Source: a virus. Taken from it: a DNA stretch of 64,000 nucleotides. Where the stretch lies: the IMG/VR virus record IMGVR_UViG_3300031857_000076, positions 27,626 through 91,625 of that record; one strand, 5' to 3'. The notes under the pieces were generated by a model. The model searched no databases. It worked only from the letters and a program-made list of their open reading frames with translations, and was not told the origin of the DNA. Positions 394 to 27,876 of this stretch are shown piece after piece (the first letter of the stretch is position 1; the number at the start of each line of letters is the position of its first letter). A program made the translations under genes and the position numbers.

Positions 394-426
394 GCTGCAA
401 TATAGACTAATATCCAAAAGCGTCAA
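394..426 (-). promoter_or_regulatory. sigma70-type promoter, leaderless geometry
   Basis: TTGACG-N16-TATATT-N5-ATG on - strand. Confidence 0.6.
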
Positions 427-1084
427 GTGCGTATTTGAAGGGGTTGCCTTCAATATATTTTACAAGAAGAAGCATATATTCTGCAATATCGCGAATTTCT
501 TTCTGCGCCTCTGGTTTGTTGCGAAGCTCTAAGAAATGATGGAAGCTGCGCCAATTGAACATCACATCAGCTTGAATTTGCGAATTGTAAGTCTTGAAGA
601 AGCGAGCAGATTCTTTTGCGCGTTTGCGACCAAGAACGGGTTCAAGCTCTTTGAGGCACTGATGGTATAATGCATTACCTTCTTCGGTAAACTTTTGAAG
701 TGTTTCTGCCCAACTATCAACAGAAAAATTTGTCCAAGGACAGTCCCATTCCTCACCACTATGACCATCTAATGCAGCCCAATCATCAGGAATATAAAAC
801 TTATCTTCTTTCAGTTCTTTGTACCTAGCACTTTCTCCATTGATCGAAACGCCAATACGGTGCTTGAGTAGGTGGATGTGAGAAGCAATGTCGCAATCCA
901 CAAGAAAATGCAGGCTGCTTTTTTCAAAAGGAGTGTGATGTCCCTGTTCTGCAAGCATCTTCAAAAGCTTGGGAATACGTTCGCGCTTTTCTTCCGTGAT
1001 GTCGCGGCTAGTGGATGTCCAAGCAGAACATGCATGAATCTCGTCGCTACCATAGAATCCAATGAGTTCAACTTTATTAGTCAT
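407..1084 (-). CDS. thyX: FAD-dependent thymidylate synthase
   Basis: GHHTPFE, HLLKHR...SINGESARY ThyX motif, NWRSFHHFLELR, AQKEIR. Confidence 0.95.
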   Translation of the reverse strand: MTNKVELIGFYGSDEIHACSAWTSTSRDITEEKRERIPKLLKMLAEQGHHTPFEKSSLHFLVDCDIASHIHLLKHRIGVSINGESARYKELKEDKFYIPDDWAALDGHSGEEWDCPWTNFSVDSWAETLQKFTEEGNALYHQCLKELEPVLGRKRAKESARFFKTYNSQIQADVMFNWRSFHHFLELRNKPEAQKEIRDIAEYMLLLVKYIEGNPFKYALDAFGY

Positions 1085-2720: not shown

Positions 2721-2753
2721 AGTAAACAGTAACCCATGCTTGTCTTTTGTCAA
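2721..2753 (-). promoter_or_regulatory. sigma70-type promoter, leaderless geometry
   Basis: TTGACA-N16-TACTGT-N5-ATG. Confidence 0.55.
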
Positions 2754-3181
2754 GATAAGATTTTTTCAGGGTCGCGCTCTTTGGAGCCTTTTTCTGTTGA
2801 GGTCCAAGATTCAAAATCAATTAAAAACAATTTGCCGTCATCAGACTCTACCACATTTTTCCACCGAATGTCATTGTGATGAATTCCATAAACATGAACT
2901 AATTCATGATTCATATTTTGGATTTGAGTTTTAAACTTTTTTCTCTCTGGTGGAAGGTATTTTAAATTTAACGATTGGCCAACATATTTAGTGACAATCA
3001 CTCTATCATCTATGGAACTTGCCAATAATTTTGGCACAAACTCGCAAGACTCCAGTATTCTGTAAGCATCTAGTTCTCTTATGAATTTGCCATTTGTTTT
3101 TAGGTATTTAAAAACAGCAGTTTCTCCGCGCCAGTTTCCTAACTCTACCTTCTCTGTTGAAACACCTTTTTTAAACTGCAT
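2750..3181 (-). CDS. minimal protein-kinase-like protein (RIO/Bud32/APH superfamily)
   Basis: AVFK (VAIK-like), RELDAY, HNDIRWKN catalytic loop, LIDFE; C-lobe truncated. Confidence 0.75.
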   Translation of the reverse strand: MQFKKGVSTEKVELGNWRGETAVFKYLKTNGKFIRELDAYRILESCEFVPKLLASSIDDRVIVTKYVGQSLNLKYLPPERKKFKTQIQNMNHELVHVYGIHHNDIRWKNVVESDDGKLFLIDFESWTSTEKGSKERDPEKILS

Positions 3182-4439: not shown

Positions 4440-4691
4440 TTATTGCTTGTTGATTTTGGTCATCTTGATAAGGGAGTCGTGAATCATGTGACGGGTTTCC
4501 CAATCAATGATGCGACCATTTTCTTCTTTTGGAAGCTCGGACACTACTTGTTCCAAGTCCAAACCAAATGCCGAACAAAGGGCTTTGACTTTGCGAAGAA
4601 CGCCGATTTCCTTATACTTGAGGATTGCCCAACAGAGGTCAATCTGTTCGGGTCCGCTTTTTTCAATTGCCTTGGCAATGGTGTTGCTCAT
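4440..4691 (-). CDS. hypothetical protein
   Basis: First gene after a strong promoter and A-rich leader. Confidence 0.65.
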   Translation of the reverse strand: MSNTIAKAIEKSGPEQIDLCWAILKYKEIGVLRKVKALCSAFGLDLEQVVSELPKEENGRIIDWETRHMIHDSLIKMTKINKQ

Positions 4692-4736
4692 AGGTTTTAT
4701 TTATTTTTTATTTGTTTGTGGTTGTGTTGTTGTTAA

Positions 4737-5660
4737 CTATTCTACAATGAGAAGGATTTTTGTCAAGGTTTCTTTTACCTCTTCTGCTGCTTTTTCTTTC
4801 CAGACTCGCAAACAATAGTCGCGAATTTCTGGCATTTGAAATTGAGTTTTTAGTGCGAGTTCTTGCTCATTACCAATAATGCAATAAGGAGGTACGTCAT
4901 AACCAGACATGGCAATGGTGTTTTTACACTCATAATCGAATAGAGTAAGAACGCTATAATTGAGAGCTTCATAGAATCGGTTAGCCAAACAATTATAGTT
5001 GACATGGTTAATCTCGTCCTCAATGTAGAGACTAGAGTAGAAAGCAGAGAGTCCTTCTTTTGACCAGTTGATTCGATCAATGAATGGGCCGTTGACCTCA
5101 ATTGCGTTAAATTTTTCACGGTTTTTTTGGTGTGTTGAAACAGTTACTTTGCCTTTTAAATATTTACGGAATGAGACTTCGCGATTCTTGCGAAAAGAAC
5201 CATAATAAATGCATCCTTCTTTTGGGGCCGTTGTTTCTTTGGGGTCAAAAACTAGACAGTTCAAATTAACAAAGTGCCAACCGTTCAAATATTTTTCTAC
5301 GATTTTAGAAATGCTGCCACCATGATTGGCAATAACTTCGTAGCGACGACCTTCTTTCACTCCCATCCACAAAGCTCTTGGTTCGCCAAGGTTGTATTCG
5401 TTTGTGATGTAAAAGATTTTTGCTTCTGGACTAGCTTTTAGCCAAGCGTAGTCAACGTAAGAATAGTGACTTGCATGATTAAAAATGATTCGGTCATAGC
5501 CACCTTTAATGTTGTCGTTGACTGTTGGATAGCTCCAGATGAGGTCAGCCTCATGGCCGCTTTGAATCAAAAAGTCTTTGATCTTTTTGGCATTTAGCCA
5601 GTGAAGATTTTGAGGTTCTTTCAGCGAACCTTTGTGAGAATCAATAATTAAATATTTCAT
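4737..5660 (-). CDS. GT-B glycosyltransferase resembling T4 DNA beta-glucosyltransferase
   Basis: Collinear motifs MKYLII, YDRIIFNHAS, KIFYITNE, IYYGSFRKNRE, LYIED, NRFYEAL, LFDYE match recalled T4 BGT motifs. Confidence 0.6.
   Translation of the reverse strand: MKYLIIDSHKGSLKEPQNLHWLNAKKIKDFLIQSGHEADLIWSYPTVNDNIKGGYDRIIFNHASHYSYVDYAWLKASPEAKIFYITNEYNLGEPRALWMGVKEGRRYEVIANHGGSISKIVEKYLNGWHFVNLNCLVFDPKETTAPKEGCIYYGSFRKNREVSFRKYLKGKVTVSTHQKNREKFNAIEVNGPFIDRINWSKEGLSAFYSSLYIEDEINHVNYNCLANRFYEALNYSVLTLFDYECKNTIAMSGYDVPPYCIIGNEQELALKTQFQMPEIRDYCLRVWKEKAAEEVKETLTKILLIVE
4739..4766 (-). promoter_or_regulatory. sigma70-type promoter
   Basis: TTGACA-N16-TAGAAT followed by an A/C-rich leader to ATG 4691. 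Confidence 0.7.
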
Positions 5661-5911
5661 TGAGGAAAGAATTCGATTGCTAAACGGCCAAGATTATCTT
5701 CAAAATGAGCATAGCCCTCAAAGATGATGCGGTCTTGAATAACAATAGTTTTGTAAAGCTCAAAAGGAAACTCGCCTCGATCTGGAACTTTAACACTGTG
5801 AACTGCTGCGTTTCCGCCAGCGTGTTCAATCGTGCAGTTCTCAAATTCTTTTTCCATCCAATCAAGATGGGCTTGATTGTTTGCGCCAATGATTTTAATT
5901 TTACCAGTCAT
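5657..5911 (-). CDS. hypothetical protein
   Basis: ATGA overlap with downstream gene. Confidence 0.6.
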   Translation of the reverse strand: MTGKIKIIGANNQAHLDWMEKEFENCTIEHAGGNAAVHSVKVPDRGEFPFELYKTIVIQDRIIFEGYAHFEDNLGRLAIEFFPQ

Positions 5912-5919
5912 GTCTTACC

Positions 5920-6588
5920 TTAATAGGTATATTTGAATGTGTCAATGTCTTTTTCAAAGATTTTTTCAACTATCTTTTTTGTATTGGAATTGTAATAGTC
6001 TTTATAATCTGATCTTTTGCTTGCGTTTTCGTGCGGAATATCTGGATTAATGTGTTTGATTTCGCAAAGATCAAGCATTTCTTTAAAATCATTTTTAATA
6101 TTTTCGAAACGAAGAATAAAATTAGGCTGAAATGCGCCTTCGAACCACTCAACTTGTTGATGAGTAGCAATAAAATCTTTTGTATTATTTGCGTAATTTT
6201 CACTCATAATTTCGCAAAAATCTTCGAAAGATGCGTCATTTGATCTTTGATAAAGATTGCCTAGTTTTTTTTCTTTGGCATACTGAAATAAGGAAACTGT
6301 ACGATCAAATGGATTTCTAACTACAGAAAAAGACATGTAATTGTGAACCATTGAACCAAAAATTTGATAAATTTCGTTTGGTTTAACGTGCGTAGTCGAG
6401 ACTCGTTGATTATATGGGTTTCTTTTAAAGAAAACATCATGAAAGGTTTTTTCATGTTTTTTAATCAAATTAAGATCGCCAAGGTGAGAATAGATAGAAG
6501 TGCTGGCGTTTTTAGGAACACGAATAAAAATCATGCTCCAAATCCATTTATGCTTGCATGGAGAAAATTCCATCATGGCTTCTTCCAA
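5920..6588 (-). CDS. sulfotransferase family 2 (carbohydrate sulfotransferase-like)
   Basis: FIRVPKNASTS (5'-PSB), VRNPFDRTVS (3'-PB), RFEN, D...FKY. Confidence 0.85.
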   Translation of the reverse strand: MEEAMMEFSPCKHKWIWSMIFIRVPKNASTSIYSHLGDLNLIKKHEKTFHDVFFKRNPYNQRVSTTHVKPNEIYQIFGSMVHNYMSFSVVRNPFDRTVSLFQYAKEKKLGNLYQRSNDASFEDFCEIMSENYANNTKDFIATHQQVEWFEGAFQPNFILRFENIKNDFKEMLDLCEIKHINPDIPHENASKRSDYKDYYNSNTKKIVEKIFEKDIDTFKYTY

Positions 6589-7091
6589 AGAGAATAAGAT
6601 AAATGCTCTCTAATATCTTTTATAGGAATCAGTGAAATCTCATCTTTGCGGCCTTTTCGCTGATAAATGCGATACACTGCCTCACCAGAACTCTCAACCT
6701 TATCAGAGAAGTCCACGTTCTTTTCGCAGAAATCTAACAAAGCTTGTCTCCTAACAATTAAGAAATTCTTCTCTTGTTCAAAAGCAATCAAATCAGCACT
6801 GCCGCGAAGCCAACCCTCTTTGCCAGCCACATTCGCGAACTCTACCCACAAATATTTATCGTTTGTATTTGAGTCTGTGCGTTTCACTTTCTTTTGAGCT
6901 TTAACATCAAAAGAAACAGTGCCGTGTTTTTTGTGGTCTAAATAAACATCAACATGGGAGAGTTGTTGTTTGCGGTCTGCTTTTAAGACTTTCCAACCTC
7001 GTTTTTCAGCCATTTCTGAAAAAAGAGTTTCGGCAGAGTATCCTGAATCGGAACATTGGCCATTATAGTCAAACTGATTACGGTATTTCAT
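6573..7091 (-). CDS. putative PD-(D/E)xK-fold nuclease
   Basis: G..AE, HVD, FDVKAQK, WVE...GWL pattern. Confidence 0.55.
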   Translation of the reverse strand: MKYRNQFDYNGQCSDSGYSAETLFSEMAEKRGWKVLKADRKQQLSHVDVYLDHKKHGTVSFDVKAQKKVKRTDSNTNDKYLWVEFANVAGKEGWLRGSADLIAFEQEKNFLIVRRQALLDFCEKNVDFSDKVESSGEAVYRIYQRKGRKDEISLIPIKDIREHLSYSLWKKP

Positions 7092-7602
7092 AATATGCGA
7101 AGTCTTCTATGGTTTTAAATTTAAAAAGTTTTTGGGCAATTGCAATGAATTGTCTTTTTTTATGTTTTCTGCGCACGTTTCCAGCTATATATTTTACATT
7201 ATATTTGGCCTTAATCAACTGAAAAATTCCAAAAGCTGATTGTTGAAAAAGGTTCCAATTAAAATATCTCGAAGCAGCAAAAACAAATTCGCATGTGTGT
7301 TGTGGTTTGATGATTTGTTCTAGTTCTTTTGGAATTTCAAGTGTTTTTAAGCCAATATCAAAAGATATGAATCCAATAAAGCGATTGTCTTGCAATACAT
7401 AGAATATTTTCGTTTGATCAATTAGGTATTTAAAATGTTCGTCGTATTTGGTTTTTTGCTCAGAAAGAGTTTTGTATTTGAAGTCTAATGGCCTAGAGCG
7501 ATTGAAGAATTCCAAATAAACAAGCAGCAGTTTTTGCCTTTCGTCCTCACTTCCTAAAAATTCGTGTAATTTATAGTTTGAACCGTTATTATTTTTAGTC
7601 AT
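7078..7602 (-). CDS. hypothetical protein, possible GNAT fold
   Basis: FIGFISFD / CEFVFAA strands; start uncertain. Confidence 0.45.
   Translation of the reverse strand: MTKNNNGSNYKLHEFLGSEDERQKLLLVYLEFFNRSRPLDFKYKTLSEQKTKYDEHFKYLIDQTKIFYVLQDNRFIGFISFDIGLKTLEIPKELEQIIKPQHTCEFVFAASRYFNWNLFQQSAFGIFQLIKAKYNVKYIAGNVRRKHKKRQFIAIAQKLFKFKTIEDFAYYEIP
7564..7569 (+). promoter_or_regulatory. GTGTAA putative phage (late) promoter element upstream of tail operon
   Basis: Same hexamer precedes many gene starts in the window. Confidence 0.45.
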
Positions 7603-8617
7603 GCCCATTAACAACAAAGTTTCTAAAGACTTACTTGATTTAGAGCCAACAGCCGTTTTAGAGTTTTACAAAATCTATTACGATACGGTTAATGAGCCAG
7701 ACTCTTTCTTCCCGTTCCATCCATGCTCTAATGGATTACAAGGCAAGATTGTGTTGAATAACATTGCTTATGTGCCTTTGGCAGTTGAAGTTGAGGATTT
7801 TGAAACAAATATTTTCAATCGAATCAGTCGTCCAAAGATTAGAATCAGCAATGAACAGTTGGTAATTAGTCAGATTTTGCGCCGAAAAAACGATTTTAAA
7901 TTCGCAAAACTAGAAAGAATTAAAATTTTTGTTAAATACATTGACGATGTAAATTTTGAAGGAGGCATTAATCCTTATGGAGTTGCAGACCCAAATTCTG
8001 AAATTTCTCGCGACTCTTATGTAATTTCTCAAAAGACACAAGAAAACAAGTCTCTTGTGGAGTTTGAATTGACTGCTCCATTTGACTTGGAAAACTTTTC
8101 CATCCCTGGAAGATTGGTGATGGGAAGATACTGTTATTGGCAGTATCGCGGATTGGGATGTCACTATTTTGGTGCTCCAGTTTGCCAAGAAGATGACACG
8201 CCATTTACTTATGTTCCAACTGGCAGCTTTAACTTTCAAAGCAGTAGTAATGAGTGGACCTATAATATAACCTACAATCCAGGAATGATTGTTTATGTTT
8301 CTACTCCGAAAGACCCGTTTAGAACTTGGTATGTTTGCACACAAACGCATGTAGCAACAGAAAACAACATGCCTGGCCTTGATGACGCTCCTTGGGAAAA
8401 AGATGGCTGTTCCAAGTCTATTGGAGCTTGCAAAAAGCGGTTTTATAATTCCACCCTATCTTATAGCGGTATTTCTGGCTCTCAAACGGTTACTGGCTCC
8501 GTTTATAATCCTGTTCCTAGCGCTCAAACAGCTAGTTTAGGCGCATTTTATCTGCCATTTGGGGGCTTTCCAGCCACAGACAATTATCAATATGGACAAT
8601 CCTATCGTCAAAAATAA
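7601..8617 (+). CDS. lambda gpL-like minor tail tip protein
   Basis: VEFELTAPFD, CYWQYRGLGC, GCSKSIGACKKRF, LPFGGFP; four Cys of the gpL Fe-S site. Confidence 0.9.
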   Translation: MPINNKVSKDLLDLEPTAVLEFYKIYYDTVNEPDSFFPFHPCSNGLQGKIVLNNIAYVPLAVEVEDFETNIFNRISRPKIRISNEQLVISQILRRKNDFKFAKLERIKIFVKYIDDVNFEGGINPYGVADPNSEISRDSYVISQKTQENKSLVEFELTAPFDLENFSIPGRLVMGRYCYWQYRGLGCHYFGAPVCQEDDTPFTYVPTGSFNFQSSSNEWTYNITYNPGMIVYVSTPKDPFRTWYVCTQTHVATENNMPGLDDAPWEKDGCSKSIGACKKRFYNSTLSYSGISGSQTVTGSVYNPVPSAQTASLGAFYLPFGGFPATDNYQYGQSYRQK

Positions 8618-24556: not shown

Positions 24557-25116
24557 TATTCTAGTGTGAAGTGACAATACATGTTGGCATAATAATTGCC
24601 GTTAAACGATGTTTTACGTCCATGAAGACAGAGAGCAGATTCATAATAAACACATTCTCCAGGTTCTATTAAAACTTGATGCTCAACTCCAGAATGGTCC
24701 ACAATGTCAAATAGCCAAGGTTGCCCATCTAATGCCACGCTCATGTTTACACTAATATGATGCGTTTCTTTTTTATCCACATGCATTCCTAAAGTGGCCC
24801 CATTCTTATAGAAGCGAATGCCGTAAATGATTCCTTTGGGGTTTAGTTTTGCACCCGACCAAGATGAAAGAGCATCATACATTTCTAGTATAACTTGTTT
24901 TTTAAGTTCTGGAAATCTCTGCAAGCAAAGTAGGTCTGTGGCAACTTCAAATTGACTTGATTTAATCCACCCTTTTAAGTCTGGCTTTAGGGTATCAGAA
25001 TATTCTGGAACTCGCTCATTAATATGATTGGCCAAAACCTCTTGAATCATTTGCCATGATTTTTCTGGAATTTTTGTTTTATAAAAACCCTTATCAGTAA
25101 ACTTAGGGATGTTCAT
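24556..25116 (-). CDS. 2OG-Fe(II) oxygenase, prolyl-hydroxylase-like
   Basis: YGIRFY...MHVD (HxD), LHGR distal His, YANMYCHF. Confidence 0.8.
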   Translation of the reverse strand: MNIPKFTDKGFYKTKIPEKSWQMIQEVLANHINERVPEYSDTLKPDLKGWIKSSQFEVATDLLCLQRFPELKKQVILEMYDALSSWSGAKLNPKGIIYGIRFYKNGATLGMHVDKKETHHISVNMSVALDGQPWLFDIVDHSGVEHQVLIEPGECVYYESALCLHGRKTSFNGNYYANMYCHFTLE

Positions 25117-27309: not shown

Positions 27310-27876
27310 TTAATTATTGTTTAATTCGTGTTTAATTTCCTTGATGAACCTATTGTGAATATTAATGCATCCTTGTATTGATAATTTCAATTTTTTTGCA
27401 ATTCTTTTCCACGGTGTTAGTTTATTCTTTTTGCAATCTCTATAACGCATTTGAATAATTTTTCTTACCCTTTCATCGTGGTATTTGTCTGCCTTATCAT
27501 AAATCAGTGAGATGATTTCTTGGTTAATATACTCGCCAATATAATCTTTGTCAACTAAATGTTCAGACAAATCACCAACATCACAGTATTCATACTTTTT
27601 AACCTTGTTATGAATATTCAAGCATTTCCATTTTATTTCGTTGCCTAAATAAGTTGAAAACTTGATTCTTCTGTTGGGGTCAAACTTTAGAGCCTTCTCA
27701 TAGATGAAAAGGTCTTTATCGTCAATAATATCGTTTTTATTGATATTTGACTGATCAGAAATTGTTTGGTTAACAATCTGTAAATAAATTCCAGAGTGTT
27801 TTGCGATCAATTCTTTTAAACAACTTTCGTTGTTATTTATTTTGATTTCTTCGATAAGGGATAAGTCGTCTGCCAT
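27310..27876 (-). CDS. sigma70-family-like phage sigma factor
   Basis: LIAKHSG, FDPNRRIKFSTYL region 2, C-terminal HTH PWKRIAKKLKLS. Confidence 0.75.
   Translation of the reverse strand: MADDLSLIEEIKINNNESCLKELIAKHSGIYLQIVNQTISDQSNINKNDIIDDKDLFIYEKALKFDPNRRIKFSTYLGNEIKWKCLNIHNKVKKYEYCDVGDLSEHLVDKDYIGEYINQEIISLIYDKADKYHDERVRKIIQMRYRDCKKNKLTPWKRIAKKLKLSIQGCINIHNRFIKEIKHELNNN

Follow-up and report, generated by a model that had tools for sequence, protein, structure and literature searches.

Profile comparison and a predicted structure indicate that a 307-amino-acid (307-aa) open reading frame (ORF) in a lake-water phage is a true distant homologue of the beta-glucosyltransferase (BGT) of phage T4, the enzyme of CAZy family GT63. 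The ORF lies on the minus strand of the stretch of DNA analysed here (the window), which covers 64,000 nucleotides (nt), positions 27,626 to 91,625, of the IMG/VR virus record IMGVR_UViG_3300031857_000076. By sequence, the protein and its relatives form a separate sister of the PF09198/GT63 family and are not members of PF09198. Tentatively, and at a little less than an even chance, we read the product as a stand-alone DNA glycosyltransferase that may act after replication. The gene, its domains and the codons of its active site are as follows.

4737..5660, minus strand: BGT-like GT-B glycosyltransferase (P0001), 307-aa ORF with an ATG start, stop codon included
Domains of the BGT-like protein: N-terminal (acceptor) Rossmann domain, residues ~1-140; C-terminal (donor) domain, ~141-275; C-terminal helix, 277-306
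5397..5399, minus strand: codon of Glu88 (TNEYNL motif), aligned with Asp100, the catalytic base of T4 BGT
5181..5192, minus strand: codons of Arg157 to Arg160 (YYGSFRKNR), aligned with T4 BGT Arg191 and Arg195 (UDP phosphate)
4968..4979, minus strand: codons of Arg228 to Glu231 (NRFYEAL), aligned with T4 BGT Arg269 and Glu272 (UDP phosphate and ribose)

Pairwise BLASTP between the window protein and T4 BGT (b-gt reference sequence from NC_000866) gives an E value of 0.28, which is not significant, and the likeness is therefore visible only by profile or structure. The window protein had no match in a Pfam search (hmmscan, E up to 10), nothing useful among the PHROGs and no model in NCBIfam, and a sequence search of the PDB returned no match either for the protein singly or for the profile of its family. 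Profile-profile alignment (hhalign) of 84 full-length relatives of the window protein with 36 members of the T4 BGT family, every one of which carries PF09198, gave a probability of 98.5% and an E value of 1.6e-15 over 293 columns, spanning both proteins end to end. The same 84-member profile scored 89.8% against the single sequence of T4 BGT and 1.4% against T4 alpha-glucosyltransferase (GT72). The initial annotation had called the gene BGT-like from five pairs of motifs shared with T4 BGT. When the actual T4 sequence was used in hhalign, the two members of every pair fell opposite one another (YDRIIFNHAS with YDRLIVVNSS, KIFYITNE with KIYYLFTD, IYYGSFRKNRE with IYGGSFRSGQRE, NRFYEAL with LRVWETM and LFDYE with LIDEE), and the homology that it proposed is borne out by profile and structure alike.

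An AlphaFold2 model of the window protein, built on the 84-member alignment, reached a mean predicted local distance difference test (pLDDT) score of 95.8 and a predicted template modelling (pTM) score of 0.92, and shows a GT-B fold, in which two Rossmann-like domains are joined by a C-terminal helix that crosses back. The comparison with generic GT-B families that the initial annotation had called for came out on the side of BGT: in a Foldseek search of the PDB the T4 BGT entries 1nzd, 1j39 and 1qkj rank first, with template modelling (TM) scores of 0.68-0.73, above the other GT-B enzymes of the same search (TM 0.46-0.60). T4 BGT is also the top match of the model by VIA-align, and the closest structures overall are the two T4 DNA glucosyltransferases. 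In a viral structure library the best match was a family member from an uncultured phage (TM 0.83); next came proteins of 351-359 aa, close in size to T4 BGT (351 aa).

Five alignment columns are invariant among the 84 relatives (N134, R157, R160, R228 and E231; 84/84), and in the profile alignment the last four correspond to R191, R195, R269 and E272 of T4 BGT, residues that, in the structures of Moréra, Larivière and co-workers, bind the phosphates and ribose of UDP. On the BGT side, R191 and R195 are invariant or nearly so in the 36-member alignment, and R269 and E272 are invariant in the BGT family. The column of Glu88 is always acidic, with Glu in 60/84 and Asp in 24/84 family members; its T4 counterpart, Asp100, is the catalytic base in the same structures. 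With the active site intact, a working sugar-nucleotide-dependent transferase is expected, and judged from these residues the protein should be catalytically competent, with a UDP-sugar as donor and an inverting reaction. The family also conserves, on the acceptor side, a set of polar residues at the strand ends of the N-domain (H20, N23, D56, N87, Y89, N112, N132 and N134), and this set is kept across carriers with unrelated virions and hosts.

The separation from GT63 is seen both in domain searches and in phylogeny. PF09198 has no match anywhere in the window's record at E up to 10 and none among the 84 family members (0/84), and the sister family has no Pfam, PHROG or NCBIfam model of its own. 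In a maximum-likelihood tree the PF09198 clade and the new family are split with a branch support of 100%, and the copy of the T4-like Cronobacter phage S13 (gp057) falls inside the new family. Thirteen of the 84 members weakly match PF13524 (CgeB-like Glyco_trans_1_2; best E 7.8e-5), while the window protein does not; because true BGTs often carry such a match too, it marks only the wider GT-B C-terminal domain. An exhaustive HMMER search found 529 representative clusters at 50% identity, a collection at 90% identity yielded 446 matches, all unnamed and without Pfam domains, and at least 334 loci in IMG/VR carry a family member. Among cultured phages, tblastn with four family queries against 50,697 records found members in Cronobacter phages S13 and LPCS28 and Citrobacter phage Ci1 only, and a megablast search of cultured phages with the window's first 20 kb gave no match. 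No member was found in plasmids, and when 185,579 prokaryotic species genomes were scanned with a narrow pattern, which was derived from a 17-sequence alignment and probably covers only about half of the family, the matches were two contigs from metagenome-assembled genomes, one of 2 kb and the other with a phage-like gene layout. The family is thus found almost only in viruses.

Its members resemble T4 BGT in full-length profile homology, in the same donor-binding Arg/Arg/Arg/Glu residues, in an acidic catalytic residue at the same place, in a phage-only distribution and in their placement in early-gene blocks. They differ from it in having no PF09198 match even at E 10, in forming a clade of their own across a long branch, and in conserving a set of their own (H20, N23, N112, N132, N134, E214/D215, H219 and C245); the window protein is, in addition, about 45 residues shorter. 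The 529 clusters at 50% identity compare with 42 clusters at 90% identity for BGT. Moreover, whereas the acceptor of BGT is 5-hydroxymethylcytosine (5hmC) in DNA, the new family occurs in genomes without a dCMP hydroxymethylase.

The BGT-like gene moves singly between unrelated phages. We compared all ORFs of the window's record (G000) with those of three near-complete carriers, G013 (34 kb), G027 (47.7 kb) and G023 (68.7 kb, with terminal repeats), the G+C contents of the compared genomes ranging from 38% to 57%. The BGT-like protein, at 30-49% identity, is the sole protein common to the four, and no virion protein is common to them. G013 is P22-like (portal, coat, terminase, RusA, NinB, ERF, YqaJ and DUF1376) and has, within its 34 kb, no nucleotide-metabolism genes and no other sugar genes, while the gene set of G027 comprises a DUF2800 nuclease, an Enc34-type single-stranded DNA-binding protein, PolA, a primase, an SNF2 helicase and a serine recombinase. 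The window protein lies in a well-supported subclade to which a P22-like phage, a jumbo phage, a PolB phage and a locus flanked by methylases also contribute copies. In the same tree the G027 copy (L089:9890-10990), from a temperate PolA phage of 57% G+C, is sister to the copy at L078:10001-10861, from a remote sub-lineage within the phage group to which the window belongs, on short branches, which indicates from the sequences a recent transfer between unrelated phages.

We surveyed the neighbourhoods of the gene by clustering the ORFs of 80 loci and annotating the neighbours, which usually belong to replication or DNA modification. In one locus (L065:2928-6063) the family member has an N6_N4 DNA methylase of 254 aa on one side and, on the other, a protein of 482 aa that also contains an N6_N4 methylase domain; this locus directly follows split PolB genes and looks like a DNA-modification island. 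In L071-L075 (e.g. L071:457-4056) the order is a ParB_N protein, the BGT-like gene, a small ORF and the large terminase, which resembles an arrangement often seen for ParB-linked DNA methylases; Tet_JBP is absent from the 23-kb record. Elsewhere the gene lies between PolB and the clamp loader (L033), adjoins PolA, a DUF2800 nuclease and an SNF2 helicase (L050, L052 and L074, the G027 group), adjoins DnaB (L067, G023), follows the DUF1376 replication gene in the replication/nin region of P22-like phages (G013), or, in S13, sits between uvsY and uvsW. A dCMP deaminase is directly upstream of it in two sister sub-lineages of the window's clade, and in L064 the anti-CBASS protein Acb1 is encoded two genes away. 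The locus L068:6824-11185 (G024) contains, in order, a divergent ThyA homologue, two small ORFs, a family member 38% identical to the window protein, two small ORFs and an Asn-synthase-like enzyme, possibly a thymidine-type hypermodification cluster.

The conserved acceptor pocket, the transfer of the gene by itself and the lack of shared virion proteins among its carriers speak for one and the same acceptor molecule throughout the family, and against a virion protein in that role. DNA is the acceptor that we favour, because the nearest characterised enzymes, by sequence and by structure, are the two T4 DNA glucosyltransferases and because the gene is found repeatedly in slots of orphan DNA methylases and replication accessories. 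The near-restriction of the family to viruses, the presence of anti-defence genes among its neighbours and the nuclease-fold protein encoded in the window's own operon fit this reading as well. We propose that the duplex would be bound in the cleft between the two domains with the base presented to Glu88, and that the sugar would be taken from a common host UDP-sugar and put on DNA after replication. The nucleophile may be made by an unrecognised enzyme or may be a group already in ordinary DNA. The gene would then serve as a self-contained anti-restriction or anti-defence module, with a role like that of orphan DNA methyltransferases in other phages. Such methyltransferases are likewise single mobile genes in the same slots (nin/replication region, next to ParB_N and terminase, replication modules), and they need only a host cofactor and DNA. 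The analogy is a functional one; fold and chemistry are unrelated, and for the BGT-like enzyme action on DNA is a prediction from homology and gene context.

A universal acceptor could also be something other than DNA, such as RNA (e.g. a tRNA base with a diol), an immune signalling nucleotide, an envelope precursor or a conserved host protein. The enzyme would then have no more than its ancestry in common with BGT and would serve in host takeover or against host defences. The gene is stand-alone and no other is common to four unrelated phages, so that any host must already contain both donor and acceptor, and several further observations fit such molecules: no modified-base pathway was found, the conserved residues on the acceptor side are Asn, Tyr and His and not Lys or Arg, one copy lies two genes from Acb1, and the small-molecule GT-B enzymes BshA, SenB and tetrahydrobiopterin glucosyltransferase score only 4-6 Z units lower. 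However, the closest structures are the two DNA glucosyltransferases, placement in replication modules, between DNA methylases and beside ParB and terminase fits a DNA enzyme better, and no specific candidate among these acceptors is supported by any result. We regard a non-DNA acceptor as rather unlikely, though by no means negligible.

Several properties of the family and its carriers weigh against the DNA-glycosyltransferase reading. The branch to the true BGTs is long, at ~2.3 changes per site, and the invariant N70/G73/G74 loop of BGT is absent from the family, so that acceptor recognition differs from that of BGT. The window protein has an isoelectric point of 7.6, near neutral, and lacks several of the family's conserved basic residues; taken together, charge and conserved basic residues give no clear answer on DNA binding. 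The neighbourhood evidence is circumstantial, as early phage regions also hold host-takeover genes, and in the window the gene shares its operon with a carbohydrate sulfotransferase in a genome rich in other glycan enzymes. Furthermore, no known enzyme making the BGT-type hydroxyl is present in the window's record or in four near-complete carriers, and we know of no precedent for glycosylation of unmodified DNA.

To our knowledge, every well-understood phage DNA sugar modification starts from a hydroxylated pyrimidine, made through a thymidylate-synthase homologue or a TET/JBP dioxygenase. The initial annotation had recognised neither a dCMP hydroxymethylase nor TET/JBP in the window, and this extends to the whole 91.6-kb record (~67% complete), in which PF00303, PF12851 and PF00145 are all without a match. 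Among the carriers, PF00303, which covers thymidylate synthases, hydroxymethylases and 5hodCMP synthases, occurs in 1/32 records and in 0/4 genomes at least 90% complete (93-100%). Tet_JBP occurs in 0/33 carrier records, a count that very divergent dioxygenases could escape. C5 methylase (PF00145), N6/N4 methylase and TGT/DpdA are absent from G000, G013, G020, G023 and G027, of which all but G000 are near-complete. S13 has a single ThyA-family gene, a full-length match adjoining frd, which by its sequence is an ordinary thymidylate synthase. The absence of a known hydroxylating enzyme leaves an unrecognised precursor enzyme, direct glycosylation of ordinary DNA or a universal non-DNA acceptor.

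Two further proteins were considered as possible sources of a hydroxylated base. ThyX, present in 15/32 carrier records and in 1/4 near-complete ones, was dropped as a flavin-dependent hydroxymethylase feeding the enzyme on account of this patchy occurrence. A 186-aa protein of the window (24559-25116, minus strand) has no Pfam match at E 0.01 and a faint AlkB (TIGR00568) signal; some of its homologues are named prolyl 4-hydroxylase by the Joint Genome Institute (JGI), and all 28 homologues are at least 72% identical and thus confined to close relatives of the window phage. We found no evidence supporting it as a DNA-acting 2-oxoglutarate (2OG) oxygenase. BapA, the deglucosylase of the Brig3 system, was also considered; it has an ASCH fold and is unrelated.

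The gap could be explained conventionally if the enzyme acts, like BGT, on a 5-hydroxymethyl- or 5-hydroxy-pyrimidine whose base-making gene lies in the missing third of the window's genome or is too divergent to be recognised. The incompleteness of the record, the faint AlkB-type signal of the 186-aa protein and the L068 locus would all accommodate this. The ThyA homologue of L068, three genes from the family member and accompanied by the Asn-synthase-like gene, is the one PF00303 protein found; it has retained the catalytic Cys and the dUMP-type Asn, as well as the Asp in whose place 5-hydroxy-dCMP synthases have Asn (ThyA-type criteria from PMC13326640). The dCMP deaminase adjacent to the gene in two sub-lineages is likewise an association reported for ThyS-type pathways (bioRxiv 10.1101/2023.12.21.572611). 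However, neither a ThyA-family nor a TET/JBP gene is found in the four carriers at 93-100% completeness or in five half-complete relatives belonging to sub-lineages of the window's phage group, and the P22-like carrier is without any nucleotide-metabolism genes. The 186-aa protein, with its prolyl 4-hydroxylase names, occurs only in close relatives, and the window phage keeps ThyX and therefore makes ordinary dTMP. A conventional pathway is, in our view, improbable.

The initial annotation had gone beyond homology to suggest DNA hypermodification, possibly on a different base. The homology and the intact active site stand, DNA as the acceptor is plausible by analogy with the T4 enzymes, and the suggestion of a different base is the part that fits the data best. 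A stronger form of the DNA-glycosyltransferase reading is that the family glycosylates DNA without any hydroxymethyl- or hydroxy-pyrimidine precursor, for example on an exocyclic amine or a ring atom of a canonical base, as a one-gene mobile anti-restriction module. We consider this form unlikely, if worth stating. Under it, a sulfotransferase encoded two genes upstream might, in the window's clade, go on to sulfate the sugar.

That enzyme belongs to the operon of which the BGT-like gene is the last of five genes, preceded by genes for a 179-aa protein, a PD-(D/E)XK-fold protein, the sulfotransferase and an 84-aa protein. The five overlap or nearly abut, with, in order, overlaps of 14 nt and 16 nt, a gap of 8 nt and an overlap of 4 nt, the last being an ATGA in which the ATG of the BGT-like gene overlaps the stop of the 84-aa ORF. 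The operon lies in a co-directional minus-strand block running from 7617 down to 1, within which no terminator-like site was found on the minus strand and whose order, common to the window's clade, is the 179-aa protein, the 172-aa protein, the sulfotransferase, a small ORF, the BGT-like gene, small ORFs, a sigma factor, a kinase-like protein, UvdE and ThyX. The gene had been placed initially in an early block apart from the other glycosyltransferase clusters. The other annotated features of the block are as follows.

5657..5911, minus strand: 84-aa ORF, coupled translationally to the BGT-like gene (ATGA), no family match
5920..6588, minus strand: sulfotransferase (Sulfotransfer_2, carbohydrate type), PF03567 E 4e-18, phrog_3347
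6573..7091, minus strand: 172-aa protein with a PD-(D/E)XK nuclease-like fold, no Pfam, PHROG or NCBIfam match
7078..7617, minus strand: 179-aa protein, first gene of the operon, no Pfam, PHROG or NCBIfam match
407..1084, minus strand: ThyX flavin-dependent thymidylate synthase, PF02511 E 2.7e-31, phrog_85, in the same leftward block

The operon shared with a Sulfotransfer_2 enzyme invites the explanation that the BGT-like protein belongs to a glycan toolkit and, with its neighbour, builds a sulfated glycan on a virion protein or a host surface polymer, and the weak CgeB-like PF13524 matches of the 13 family members could be read the same way. Yet the sulfotransferase is an indel-variable cassette that is linked to the gene in one clade only: in L018 the same neighbours lie side by side without it, and position 5997 is joined to 6557 in a DNA contig from freshwater (run X15). 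In addition, the gene stands in its early block away from the glycan clusters, other sugar genes are lacking in such carriers as the P22-like phage of 34 kb, and the acceptor pocket is conserved although the four compared carriers have no virion protein in common, which speaks against a virion protein as acceptor. We hold this to be the least probable of the explanations considered, and quite unlikely.

The 84-aa ORF is kept at the same position in 16 related loci and the 172-aa protein is conserved in 42. An AlphaFold2 model of the latter (pLDDT 91.5) matches I-Ssp6803I (E 8.6e-4), Hjc resolvases, the SPARDA nuclease domain and NhoI in Foldseek, and its invariant residues are Asp48, Asp62 and Lys64 (Asp-x-Lys) and Glu84. 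For the 179-aa protein, the nearest named clusters in a language-model atlas are N-acetyltransferases with few shared features, and a GNAT-like assignment is a lead only. As called, its gene (7078-7617, minus strand) and the divergent gene 7601-8617 (plus strand) overlap at their 5' ends (7601-7617); a public record uses a shorter start (residue 4) for the minus-strand gene, and with either start the promoters of both divergent units must fall inside coding sequence. Downstream of the BGT-like gene, a 143-aa protein (2750-3181, minus strand) weakly matches the C-lobe only of kinase-like folds (choline kinase, Bud32 and Kdo kinase). Sugar or aminoglycoside-type kinases occur in known DNA-glycosylation clusters. 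A near-consensus sigma-70-like promoter (4739-4766, minus strand; TTGACA, 16 nt, TAGAAT; 11/12 matches) lies at the 3' end of the BGT-like gene and is directed into the downstream small genes.

Contigs of close relatives of the window phage span 118-137 kb. The stretch itself recurs across many studies in metagenomes from freshwater and lakes, of which some bear the label fungus metagenome and several are possibly the source sample. Two lake metatranscriptome runs gave short contigs over 4718-4970, 4451-4709 and parts of 6553-7168, which, being of low depth and from RNA libraries that can contain DNA, are only a hint of transcription of the 3' end of the gene and of its neighbours.

Phage glycosyltransferases acting on DNA have been described in several recent studies. 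GT-B enzymes resembling T4 BGT in methylase/TET clusters glycosylate 5hmC, and about 65% of phage contigs containing glycosyltransferases lack a base-modification enzyme in the vicinity (Pyle et al. 2023, bioRxiv 10.1101/2023.12.21.572611). Those enzymes are alike in being phage GT-B proteins that adjoin polymerases, ParB-like proteins, helicases, methylases, terminase and dCMP deaminase; they are unlike the present family in that their 5hmC comes from a neighbouring C5 methylase and TET-like dioxygenase, whereas Tet_JBP is not seen among our carrier records. The family is set apart from them by description and not by sequence comparison. In RB69, DLP3 and RL38J1, 5-hydroxycytosine made via ThyA homologues receives arabinosyl and hexosyl groups from GT4-like transferases (Lee et al. 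2026, PMC13326640). These are also cases of DNA glycosylation in T4-like phages without classical glucosyltransferases, but the transferases resemble GT4-type enzymes (BshA, PimA and sucrose-phosphate synthase) and not BGT, and the systems need a ThyA homologue with a D169N signature. Among our carrier records the one such homologue, that of L068, keeps Asp at this position. Phage thymine dioxygenases, some of them ParB-dependent, have also been reported (O'Toole et al. 2026, PMC13229309), and GT63 and GT72 have been recognised as phage-only sister families (2026 Nucleic Acids Research paper, PMC13216743). None of these four papers describes the present family, and none describes a BGT-like enzyme in complete genomes that are without every known precursor route.

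The closest relatives of T4 BGT make up a family with roughly ten times the diversity of BGT and without a database model. Transfer as a single gene has carried it into unrelated phages of freshwater and elsewhere, with a known base-hydroxylating enzyme almost never alongside. The three cultured carriers, Cronobacter phages S13 and LPCS28 and Citrobacter phage Ci1, make the question of its acceptor directly testable. If the family acts on DNA, there would have to be either an unrecognised acceptor chemistry or an unrecognised base-hydroxylating enzyme, and the activity would bear on the evasion of restriction and CRISPR, on artefacts in the sequencing of native DNA and on tools for DNA labelling. 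Should the precursor-free form of this reading be true, it would represent a new class of DNA modification. If, on the other hand, the family does not act on DNA, the BGT scaffold would have a second, widespread role in phage infection.

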